Assembly (NCBI GenBank): GCA_026225255.1
Contig: JAMFSJ010000061.1
Span: 798-64,797, forward strand
DNA: 64,000 nt
Direction of reading: 5' to 3'
Source: Methylacidimicrobium fagopyrum
GTDB taxonomy: Bacteria > Verrucomicrobiota > Verrucomicrobiia > Limisphaerales > UBA11358
The notes under the pieces are model-generated. The model ran no database searches and had not been told where the DNA came from. It saw only the letters and a program-made list of their open reading frames with translations. The translations under genes were made by a program, and so were the position numbers. This document shows, piece by piece, positions 57,291-58,948 of this stretch. How positions within the stretch are numbered: the stretch's first letter is position 1; every line of letters starts with the position of its first letter.

Positions 57291-57371
57291 ATGATCCCCC
57301 GCGAAATTCTCAAAAAAATCCGGCAGATCGAGCTGCGCACGAATCGCATCGTGACGGAGTCGCTCGCGGGC
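57291..57371 (+). repeat. DUF58 5'-end copy 2
   Basis: MIPREILKKIRQIELRTNRIVTESLAG; 4 mismatches in 81 bp versus 57992-58072. Confidence 0.9.
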
Positions 57372-57374
57372 AGC

Positions 57375-57680
57375 TCATTTCAGCCGTCGCCTCAGCTCCG
57401 TCGGACTCCGCGCGCCATGGAAAATGGAAACCACAATCACCATGGGCGAATTTTCGAGGATGGTGAAGTAGATGGAATACGGCCAATCCAGCATTTTGAT
57501 CTTTTGAGTGGTTGGCCCGGCAAATGGAAATCTCTCGTGGTCTTTGGTGGCTTCGGAAAGCGTGGCGTGGACTTCGCGGGCAAATCTTTGGCCGACACCA
57601 TCGGTCTGCAAATCATACCACGCAATCGCCTCGTGGAATTCCGTCTCGGCCTCGGCTTGGAAGGCGACTTGAAAACTCAT
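57375..57680 (-). CDS. RelE/ParE-family toxin
   Basis: EAETEFHEAIAWY, WPYSIYF, VVSIFHGARSP. Confidence 0.85.
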   Translation of the reverse strand: MSFQVAFQAEAETEFHEAIAWYDLQTDGVGQRFAREVHATLSEATKDHERFPFAGPTTQKIKMLDWPYSIYFTILENSPMVIVVSIFHGARSPTELRRRLK

Positions 57681-57898
57681 TTTTTGGCGCGATACCGCTT
57701 TTCAATATCGGCCATGACATCTTCAAGTGAACGGCAGCGTTCCGGATGCGCCCGCGCTTCAGCGGCACGACGTTCAAGCTCCGCGATCTGTTCCGGCGTG
57801 AGTTCCGGGTCGAATTCATCGCGGAGATGCGCGAAGACTTCATATTGGTCCTCGAATGGAAGTTTGTGGATTTGCTCCAAAACTTGGCTTGCACTCAT
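57677..57898 (-). CDS. Addiction-module antitoxin
   Basis: LTPEQIAELERR...SLEDV; ATGA overlap with the toxin. Confidence 0.8.
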   Translation of the reverse strand: MSASQVLEQIHKLPFEDQYEVFAHLRDEFDPELTPEQIAELERRAAEARAHPERCRSLEDVMADIEKRYRAKK

Positions 57899-57991
57899 GG
57901 CGGCAATTTACTCCTTTCGCTTGGTTACGCAAGCGGGGTTTTCCGCACGGGTAGATTCATCATTCAACCGTCACCATTCATCCTTTCCCAC

Positions 57992-58948
57992 ATGATCCCC
58001 CGCGAAATTCTCAAAAAAATCCGGCAGATTGAGCTGCGCACGAATCGCATCGTGACCGAAACGCTCGCGGGCCAATATCATTCCGTCTTCAAGGGGCAAG
58101 GCATGAACTTTGACGAAGTGCGTGAATATCAGCCCGGCGATGACGTGCGCGCGATTGATTGGAACGTCACGGCGCGGATGAATCATCCGTTCATCAAAAA
58201 ATTTGTCGAAGAACGCGAACTCACGCTCATGCTCATTGTGGACGTTAGCGGCTCGGGACTGTTCGGTTCGCGCGATCAATCCAAACGCGAACTCGCGGCG
58301 GAGATCGCTTCCGTATTGGCGTTCTCGGCGATTCGCAATAATGACAAGGTCGGCTTGATTCTTTTCAGCGATGAAGTGGAAAAATATATTCCGCCGCGCA
58401 AAGGTCGCAGCCACGTGTTGCGCGTCATCCGCGAAGTTTTATTTTTTGAACCAAAACGGCGCGGAACCGATCTCAATATCGCATTGGAATTTTTGATACG
58501 GGTGCAAACGCACAAGGCCATCACGGTGGTCATCTCGGATTTTATCGGTTCGCCCGCAGCGTTGCGGCGTCCGGGCGGCCAGCGGATGCAACCGCAGATG
58601 ATGTTGCTCGAATCGCTGGCGCAGGCATCGTTCTCGATGTTGCGCCAAGCGAATCGCAAACATGATTTGGTGGCCGTGCAAGTGACGGATCCGTGCGAAT
58701 TGGAATTGCCGGATCTCGGGCGCCTGACGTTTCAAGACGCGGAAACGGGCGAGATCGTCGAGGTTAATACGAGCGACGAACGCAAACGAAAAGCGTTTGC
58801 CGAAAGGCAGGCCAAATCGCAGGAAGATTTGGCGCGACTGTTCCGGCGTGCGGGCATTGACGCGATCCAGTTACGCACCGACCAGCCTTACGGCGTGACC
58901 CTTGGCCGTTTTTTTGAGACACGTAAAAAACGGAGATTGAGAGGCTGA
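57992..58948 (+). CDS. DUF58 domain protein (MoxR partner)
   Basis: SVFKGQGMNFDEVREYQPGDDVRAIDWNVTAR, DVSGS, ISDF. Confidence 0.93.
   Translation: MIPREILKKIRQIELRTNRIVTETLAGQYHSVFKGQGMNFDEVREYQPGDDVRAIDWNVTARMNHPFIKKFVEERELTLMLIVDVSGSGLFGSRDQSKRELAAEIASVLAFSAIRNNDKVGLILFSDEVEKYIPPRKGRSHVLRVIREVLFFEPKRRGTDLNIALEFLIRVQTHKAITVVISDFIGSPAALRRPGGQRMQPQMMLLESLAQASFSMLRQANRKHDLVAVQVTDPCELELPDLGRLTFQDAETGEIVEVNTSDERKRKAFAERQAKSQEDLARLFRRAGIDAIQLRTDQPYGVTLGRFFETRKKRRLRG

Follow-up and report, generated by a model that had tools for sequence, protein, structure and literature searches.

How can an operon accommodate genes that lie on its opposite strand? The question is raised by a locus of Methylacidimicrobium fagopyrum (Verrucomicrobiota; Limisphaerales) within a stretch of 64,000 nucleotides (nt) of contig JAMFSJ010000061.1 (assembly GCA_026225255.1, positions 798 to 64,797 of the forward strand), hereafter the window. 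In this locus, a toxin-antitoxin pair is located antisense within a Bat-like operon, between a copy of the beginning of the DUF58 gene and the DUF58 gene itself, and the sense strand across the pair forms an open reading frame (ORF) of 234 codons, here termed the bridge, that ends on the DUF58 start codon. An earlier note on this DNA had proposed that ribosomes are carried across the insert on this frame, so that translational coupling is preserved, polarity is avoided, and the cargo is tolerated. The results described below indicate that the frame is not a chance shadow of the toxin-antitoxin genes and that its openness, not its peptide, has been selected.

RESULTS

A stop-free frame across the antisense toxin-antitoxin pair

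The bridge occupies positions 57291..57995 on the plus strand, as given by the list of ORFs of the window. It begins in copy 2 of the DUF58 start (start codon and first 27 codons, 57291..57371, plus strand; 83 bits with nhmmer), which is a direct copy (57290-57371) of the first 82 nt of DUF58 (57991-58072) with 95% identity. The frame then runs without a stop over a putative ParE/RelE-type toxin gene (57375..57680, minus strand), an antitoxin gene of the Unstab_antitox family (PF09720; 57677..57898, minus strand), and a 93-nt spacer (57899..57991) on the presumed promoter side of the pair. It terminates at a TGA (57993-57995) overlapping the ATG (57992-57994) of the true DUF58 gene (57992..58948, plus strand; vWA-like, Pfam DUF58 3e-81), and the resulting ATGA at 57992-57995 is the arrangement of a coupled pair, in which the upstream stop overlaps or abuts the downstream start. 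The frame reported in the earlier note, from copy 2 to this ATGA, was confirmed by the ORF list and the coordinates, and a comparison of frames bore out its claim on register: the bridge shares its codon register with the toxin and is shifted by 2 relative to the antitoxin. A separate piece of a Logan assembly, from the one DNA run that contains the sequence, matched 57306-58020 with zero differences.

The antitoxin gene lies directly upstream of the toxin gene and overlaps it by 4 nt, and the toxin's own stop codon is 84 nt past the ATG of copy 2. The antitoxin scored 27 bits against its Pfam family, above the cut-off of 23.3. With 19.7 bits against ParE_toxin (E value 1.3e-3), the toxin stayed under that family's cut-off of 23; scores of 23-42 bits were obtained for 15 homologous cassette toxins in relatives, and the C terminus is conserved in an alignment of 16 toxin sequences (alignment A1). 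The toxin gene of the window contains no TTA, CTA, or TCA codon, and its antitoxin gene contains no dicodon at Tyr, His, or Gln that would read as a sense-strand stop.

The expected frequency of such a frame was estimated in the same genome. Over 2590 long ORFs, antisense stops occur at 0.017 per codon in register and at 0.035 and 0.044 per codon off register, and 27% of 101-codon in-register windows and 9% of 74-codon windows at the offset of the antitoxin are open. The caveat that in-register antisense frames are often open in GC-rich DNA turned out not to apply, as the G+C content of the genome is 53.6% and every 100 codons of its off-register antisense frames include 3.5-4.4 stops. The codon-shuffle simulation suggested in the earlier note was carried out with both proteins fixed, codons resampled from genome usage, and the spacer shuffled. 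The window frame was open in 0.5% of 2000 trials, and the correct phase of the ATGA adds a further factor of 1/3. For a locus that had been picked by eye, this single-locus figure is unusual yet not decisive. Across the cassettes described below, the probability of openness under this null ranged from 0 to 0.19 per insert; all nulls use the codon usage of the window's genome.

Bridges in relatives at the MoxR-DUF58 junction

The junction between DUF58 and the upstream MoxR gene was surveyed in relatives belonging to Verrucomicrobia subdivision 3 / Limisphaerales; all genomes are metagenome-assembled genomes or metagenome contigs. DUF58 loci from 41 genomes and 80 species genomes amounted to 116, or 110 after 6 identical ones were dropped, and toxin and antitoxin gene starts were assigned by ORF or hidden Markov model (HMM). 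In the 84 loci with both a MoxR stop and a DUF58 start, the two were spaced by 8-148 nt (28 loci, empty sites) or by 225-3764 nt (56 loci). This wide spread marks the junction as a variable hot spot. With a DNA profile of the DUF58 start, additional upstream copies were detected in 44 of the 110 loci, which gave 47 copy-bounded intervals. Their lengths span 206-1387 nt and equal 2 modulo 3 in 44 of the 47, and the copies begin with ATG (46) or GTG (1).

Antisense HMM matches to toxin and/or antitoxin were present in 33 of these intervals, and in every one the ORF from the start of the copy (32 ATG, 1 GTG) reached the ATGA of the next copy or of the true start. Seven further DUF58-adjacent cassettes had no recognizable copy, two of them being truncated by contig ends; six reached the ATGA, and the frame of the seventh (L180) ended 16 nt before the ATG. 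In total, 40 of 40 in-context cassettes of the species genomes are open across their toxin-antitoxin genes, and 39 end in ATGA. Most inserts contain ParE_toxin and Unstab_antitox (Pfam) on the minus strand, the cassette is antisense to the operon in every surveyed case, and the spacer varies in length with its phase retained. The toxins of these cassettes fall into 14 clusters at 70% identity.

Bridges were also found over other contents. Eight intervals hold repeat-like or low-complexity DNA without toxin-antitoxin or sense genes; all are open, seven of them up to an ATGA and one to a stop 22 nt beyond the ATG. The remaining six intervals consist of a short ORF followed by a sense cargo gene. 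Among all cases, bridges of 69-388 codons extend over unrelated contents, the exceptions to ATGA end at -16, -25, and +22 nt relative to the ATG, and the frame never closes more than 25 nt short of the next start.

A metagenome scan with the toxin of the window yielded 19 loci, 15 of them distinct. Eight of these lie between DUF58 starts; among the eight, one had been counted before as an identical locus, and another has two cassettes. All nine cassettes in them are open; eight end in ATGA, and that of L239 ends 25 nt before the ATG. The earlier note had named common sense-strand stops in homologous inserts as evidence against its idea, and the survey gave the opposite result in both the species genomes (40/40) and the metagenomes (9/9).

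Stop codons in other frames and outside the operon

In 41 bridge intervals, the bridge frame contains 0 stops in 9330 codons, as against 314 and 267 stops in the other two sense frames, which are stop-free in 0 and 1 of the 41 intervals, respectively. As controls, toxin homologues located away from the operon were retrieved from the same 41 genomes by a search with alignment A1 (73 loci, of which 5 partial toxins were dropped to give 68). Their in-register antisense frame was open over the toxin in 23 cases, over at least 175 codons in 6, and over at least 200 codons in 3. TTA, CTA, and TCA account for 0 of 417 Leu/Ser codons in 34 cassette toxins but for 67 of 791 in the 68 controls. Likewise, stop-making dicodons occupy 0 of 236 Tyr, His, and Gln sites in 43 cassette antitoxins and 46 of 218 in 47 control antitoxins, although the Tyr+His+Gln content is similar (0.075 versus 0.067). 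The Fisher values for these two depletions, 3e-13 and 1e-16, are overstated since the cassettes are kin.

Close homologues of the window's toxin outside the operon do carry stops. In four metagenome loci without a DUF58 start nearby (L245-L248, 68-74% identity), the toxin part contains 1, 3, 3, and 2 stops, respectively, in the bridge frame, and the homologue L081 from one of the genomes (70% identity to the toxin of the window and 78% to its antitoxin) has 2. The neighbors of these out-of-operon homologues are unrelated genes (UvrB, SMP-30-like, hydrolase, and symporter). Among the other metagenome matches, L251 is partial and L252 is distant. These results indicate that the 234-codon bridge is real and no chance shadow frame.

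A second bridge between BatA and BatB

The same operon contains another bridge. Between the BatA-like vWA gene (59525..60496, plus strand; Pfam VWA and BatA) and the BatB-like gene (61278..62972, plus strand; BatA N-terminal domain, vWA, and TPR), an ORF at 60493..61281 on the plus strand starts with a GTG that overlaps the BatA stop (GTGA) and ends with a TGA that overlaps the BatB ATG at 61278 (ATGA); an earlier in-frame GTG is located at 60418. This frame is stop-free over an antisense gene of the 23S_rRNA_IVP family (60688..61041, minus strand; four-helix bundle, Pfam 1.4e-16), with which it is in register, and over two 182-nt direct repeats that flank the gene (60502-60683 and 61090-61271). 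The ends of the repeats are arrays of the heptamers ATTGCCG/ATTGGCG, and the element is absent from the rest of the genome.

The IVP gene was found in 14 genomes of the genus, that of the window included, with protein identities of 79-92%; in 13 it is located between BatA and BatB, and in L296, which also carries it, a BatB start was not found. None of the 277 Leu/Ser codons of the IVP gene in these 14 genomes is TTA, CTA, or TCA, and each genome has an in-frame start codon that overlaps the stop of BatA. Where the BatB start was located (13 genomes), the bridge terminates in ATGA in 11 and at 0 and +10 nt in the other two. By contrast, stop-making codons make up 109 of 711 in 34 IVP homologues elsewhere, only one of which is stop-free. 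The IVP bridge is a single insertion lineage, yet it differs in both cargo family and junction, and we count it as an independent second case.

A genome-wide scan for ORFs of at least 110 codons whose stop overlaps the start of a downstream ORF of at least 150 codons (n = 467) flagged three candidates, namely the IVP bridge and alternative frames inside holA-like and ychF-like genes; an earlier version using the in-register model only had given four. The scan missed the toxin-antitoxin bridge and is thus insensitive and uninformative on generality.

Selection on the frame and on the peptide

Cassette pairs at 72-99.5% nucleotide identity were compared by the ratio of nonsynonymous to synonymous differences (pN/pS). 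Over the toxin part (25 pairs), the median pN/pS was 0.19 in the toxin frame (pS 0.46) and 1.16 in the bridge frame (0.77-1.85). Over the antitoxin part (20 pairs), the bridge ratio was 0.26 against 0.17 for the antitoxin; this bridge ratio follows that of the antitoxin because the wobble positions of the two frames coincide. In close pairs, conservation is lower for the bridge peptide (55-74%) than for the toxin or the antitoxin (79-91%), and a comparison of the bridge peptide with Pfam gave no family match. Purifying selection on the protein, as expected of an antisense overlapping gene, was not found over the toxin part. These data show purifying selection against stops in exactly the bridge frame, with its phase conserved and with no selection on the peptide. 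That the peptide is not conserved fits a role for the act of translation rather than for its product.

The operon and its other cargo

The operon is opened by a MoxR-type AAA+ ATPase gene (54855..55844, plus strand; Pfam AAA_3 3.8e-66 and AAA_lid_2). MoxR, DUF58, and the BatA- and BatB-type vWA proteins are encoded in the same direction, and relatives keep their order; the arrangement is that of a Bat-like operon, and the Pfam title of the BatA domain is "Aerotolerance regulator N-terminal." Between MoxR and copy 2 are two sense-strand cargo genes. The first encodes a VanY-type peptidase (55841..56344, plus strand; Pfam VanY 5e-42); it shares its GTG with the MoxR stop (GTGA) and its own stop with the ATG of copy 1 of the DUF58 start (ATGA), and it is missing from many relatives. 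Copy 1, with a 34-codon ORF (56341..56445, plus strand), was recognized by repeat comparison as a third, older or more diverged copy (56340-56421, 79% identity). Its ORF terminates 4 nt upstream of the start of the second cargo gene, which encodes a KilA-N domain protein (56450..57283, plus strand; Pfam KilA-N 2.2e-21) and whose stop is followed by copy 2 after 7 nt. ORFs thus follow one another on the sense strand all the way from MoxR to DUF58, with stop-to-start gaps of at most 7 nt, despite the two opposite-strand genes in between. A scan of 54500-59200 for promoters and terminators gave counts not above those in shuffled sequences and nothing useful within the cassette.

Sense cargo at the junction in the surveyed loci comprises VanY, KilA-N, retropepsin-like, GxGYxYP, HEAT, ankyrin, CdiI, DUF5069, IS200-like transposase, and DUF3368 genes. 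The IS200-like Y1 transposase gene was found in one relative (L031 5295-5759, plus strand; Pfam Y1_Tnp 9e-24), where it points in the sense direction within the MoxR-DUF58 interval. Two recurring kinds of repeat-like elements, stop-free in the bridge frame, occur in cassettes at L030 2150-2680, L158 3520-3900, and L044 5547-6001 and also at L195, L184, L037, L157, L161, and L231. In the bridge frame, element 1 reads '..GARASARFTAR..LKRRERRAP' and element 2 reads '..PTGLRPPAQGC..ATLG..NRNAVAA..NPVGVD..QGSSCVATLG..SRWD'. Both look like repeats of the type of miniature inverted-repeat transposable elements, and the Y1 transposase of L031 might be linked to them. At L032 (oriented coordinates 197-502), a TAG breaks the toxin in its own frame, yet the bridge frame runs uninterrupted as far as the ATGA, and the frame of the host strand may thus outlive the toxin.

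Toxin identity tracks DUF58 identity only weakly (Spearman 0.24), and several copies are closer to the DUF58 starts of other genomes than to their own (for the copies of L036, its own start ranks 103 and 91 of 110). Therefore, the cassette and the copy move between lineages. The repeated 84 nt could serve as sites of recombination by which cassettes are gained, exchanged, or lost. Site-specific recombination was considered as a source of the repeats and rejected: Phage_integrase has two matches in the genome, on contigs C1 and C59, and none on the contig of the window, and the copies vary in length from 42 to 82 profile positions. The lack of a nearby integrase and the variable copy lengths speak for homology-driven or illegitimate events. 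Repeats of the last 21-28 codons of MoxR occur in the MoxR-DUF58 interval at L029 (4074-4157), L037 (3998-4078 and 4506-4568), and L046 (3962-4030; all oriented coordinates), and thus the 3' end of the upstream gene, besides the 5' end of DUF58, has been duplicated with cargo. Between L030 and L041, toxin identity is 21% and antitoxin identity is 73%, which suggests that the toxin and antitoxin halves have been reshuffled by recombination.

DISCUSSION

The evidence assembled here makes it probable that the bridge is translated and keeps ribosomes on the operon messenger RNA (mRNA) up to the next start codon. Ribosomes would initiate at the ATG of the copy, traverse a meaningless but open frame antisense to the toxin and antitoxin and through their promoter spacer, and terminate at the TGA within the ATGA that includes the start of the true DUF58 gene. 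The operon mRNA would thereby be free of a long untranslated stretch, which would invite Rho-dependent termination or mRNA decay, and terminating ribosomes would be delivered to the DUF58 start codon. Rho is encoded in the genome. The frame is open to within 25 nt of the next start and nearly always to the ATGA, so the constraint reaches the last codons of the spacer. Avoidance of long untranslated RNA alone would not demand openness to the last codons, and the benefit therefore likely includes the arrival of terminating ribosomes at the start codon. We infer translation of the frame, and a benefit through anti-polarity and/or re-initiation, from the pattern of open frames; anti-termination, mRNA protection, and re-initiation are not separable by these data. 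The ribosome-carrying idea of the earlier note thus finds support in the open cassettes, the stops of out-of-operon homologues, and the unconserved peptide, with translation, coupling, and relief of polarity as its conditional parts.

Several observations weigh against this interpretation. A search for RNA runs containing 55800-58600 gave none. At the 28 empty sites among the 84 loci, the gap is 8-148 nt and no obvious Shine-Dalgarno sequence is present; DUF58 can start uncoupled there. "Preserving" coupling, as the earlier note put it, is consequently imprecise: MoxR and DUF58 do not overlap at those sites, so the ATGA coupling belongs to the occupied sites and is not ancestral. Predicted RNA structure and accessibility from -40 to +40 around the start were compared among 28 empty-site, 37 bridged true, and 40 copy starts; the structure was not tighter at bridged starts (median ensemble energy of -10.8 kcal/mol, versus -12.7 at empty sites), which leaves occlusion of the start codon by RNA structure unsupported. 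Two loci contain unbridged antisense genes on the MoxR-proximal side, namely three ORFs of 231, 348, and 239 amino acids at L043 (oriented coordinates 1697-4187) and a distant ParE paralogue at L184 (2213-2491), and solely the DUF58-proximal cassette is bridged in both. Therefore, an unbroken chain from MoxR is not obligatory. In addition, all toxin-antitoxin cassettes share one architecture, with the toxin stop 84 nt after the ATG of the copy, which points to one ancestor; the counts are therefore non-independent, and the Fisher tests overstate the effect. The out-of-operon loci L245-L248 form one clade sharing one stop position, and their antitoxin part has no stops. Finally, L249, in which no copy of the DUF58 start was detected, has an open frame of 208 codons; this metagenome contig carries a truncated toxin homologue and an antitoxin (811-1437, flipped coordinates).

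Other explanations of the open frame were weighed against translation of the bridge in the service of the operon. If the frame were an ordinary shadow ORF, its openness would reflect the scarcity of stops in in-register antisense frames, and such a scarcity does exist: in-register antisense frames of the genome average 1.7 stops per 100 codons, 101-codon windows are open in 27% of cases, and 23 of the 68 control toxins have an open frame of this kind. However, neither the antitoxin part nor the spacer is in register; the insert of the window is open in 0.5% of resampling trials; all 40 in-context cassettes are open, whereas 3 of 68 controls reach 200 codons; the absence of stops is confined to one sense frame; and close homologues outside the operon carry stops, while the cassettes, in 14 clusters, are not near-identical. 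We regard chance as practically negligible. Scarcely more credible is a by-product of selection on the toxin-antitoxin mRNA, namely avoidance of rare codons in highly expressed cassette genes. TTA, CTA, and TCA are indeed rare genome-wide (1.7% summed), but they make up 8.5% of the Leu/Ser codons in paralogues from the same genomes, the depletion in antitoxins concerns dicodons that span codon borders, and the non-coding spacer and the repeat-only intervals are stop-free as well.

A functional protein of 234 amino acids, encoded by a true antisense overlapping gene and perhaps acting as a decoy with the DUF58 N terminus, would account for the long ORF, its conserved openness and start codon (46 ATG and 1 GTG of 47), and the conserved DUF58 N-terminal peptide with which it begins. 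We consider it very improbable, since the peptide has no Pfam match, evolves over the toxin part at a pN/pS of about 1.16 where the toxin is held at 0.19, and is less conserved in close pairs than either hosted protein, and since bridges of 69-388 codons extend over contents as unrelated as repeat-like DNA and, at another junction, the IVP gene. Somewhat less improbable, although still unlikely, is a frame that serves the toxin-antitoxin pair, the translated and stable operon transcript being an antisense RNA or a device of transcriptional interference that tunes expression of the pair. The cassette is always antisense to the operon, translation would protect such an antisense transcript, and an identical codon signature would be expected. 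Yet repeat-only intervals and the unrelated IVP gene are bridged too, and the downstream gene is implicated by frames that invariably stay open up to 25 nt or less from the next start. Translation of the bridge for the benefit of the operon thus remains the interpretation that we favor.

Each component of this arrangement has known counterparts. The bridges resemble coupling by overlapping stop and start codons (ATGA or GTGA) and relate to operon polarity in that 39 of 40 cassettes end in ATGA; unlike in known cases, the upstream unit is a frame of 69-388 codons with no conserved product, laid over opposite-strand genes. According to Price et al. (2006; PMC1480536), opposite-strand transcripts inside operons were never seen in Escherichia coli, and rare cases in Bacillus subtilis are possible only through relatively weak Rho-dependent termination. 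For integron arrays, one study (PMC11511950) states that translation of the upstream cassette sets the mRNA level and expression of the next one, that extension of translation through the 3' untranslated region raises downstream expression 2-fold, and that the attI ORF-11 and ORF-17 are short ORFs lending ribosomes to the next cassette. Integron arrays are also alike in being promoterless cargo arrays read from one promoter. They differ in that no integrase is nearby here, the repeat unit consists of coding sequence from the 5' end of the gene downstream, and the bridged cargo is antisense; moreover, neither attC-like hairpins nor inverted repeats at cargo boundaries were found for the repeats of the window, which set them apart from integron cassettes. 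In Pseudomonas aeruginosa, two long antisense overlapping genes are reported (PMC8850804) to be translated and under purifying selection as proteins. They share with the bridge a long ORF wholly antisense to annotated genes and open in relatives, whereas the peptide of the bridge evolves neutrally over the toxin part.

Toxin-antitoxin cassettes stabilize chromosomal integron arrays. The cassettes at the MoxR-DUF58 junction match type II modules of ParE/RelE and PF09720 in gene order (antitoxin, then toxin), 4-nt overlap, location in a variable cassette region, and, in relatives, Pfam families. They differ from such modules in being nested antisense in a housekeeping-type operon, flanked by copies of a host-gene start, and imprinted at the codon level with the reading frame of the opposite strand. 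In a literature search of limited coverage, no account was found of an operon whose sense strand retains an open frame across antisense genes. Coupling, polarity, shadow ORFs, and toxin-antitoxin cassettes are known; the combination of these, together with the codon imprint on the hosted genes, is new. As a tentative generalization, the toxin-antitoxin module could be a portable, polarity-neutral cassette that brings a copy of its target's start and codons keeping the opposite strand readable, and could thereby nest antisense in an operon of essential type without silencing the genes downstream. More broadly, and equally tentatively, stop-free bridges could be a general condition for operons to host opposite-strand genes, leaving an imprint that can be searched for.

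Genes on the opposite strand are usually assumed to break an operon. In the operon described here, two unrelated antisense cargoes are both devoid of stop-making codons or dicodons, and a reading frame can evidently be strongly selected for openness without encoding a useful protein. The bridge also offers a simple test bed for polarity, since stops that are silent in the toxin can be introduced into it. If the bridge is indeed translated, it would provide a concrete rule for the tolerance of operons to foreign antisense inserts and would place a new constraint on the synonymous sites of toxin-antitoxin genes. It would also serve as a warning to annotators that long "shadow" ORFs may function as translated spacers.

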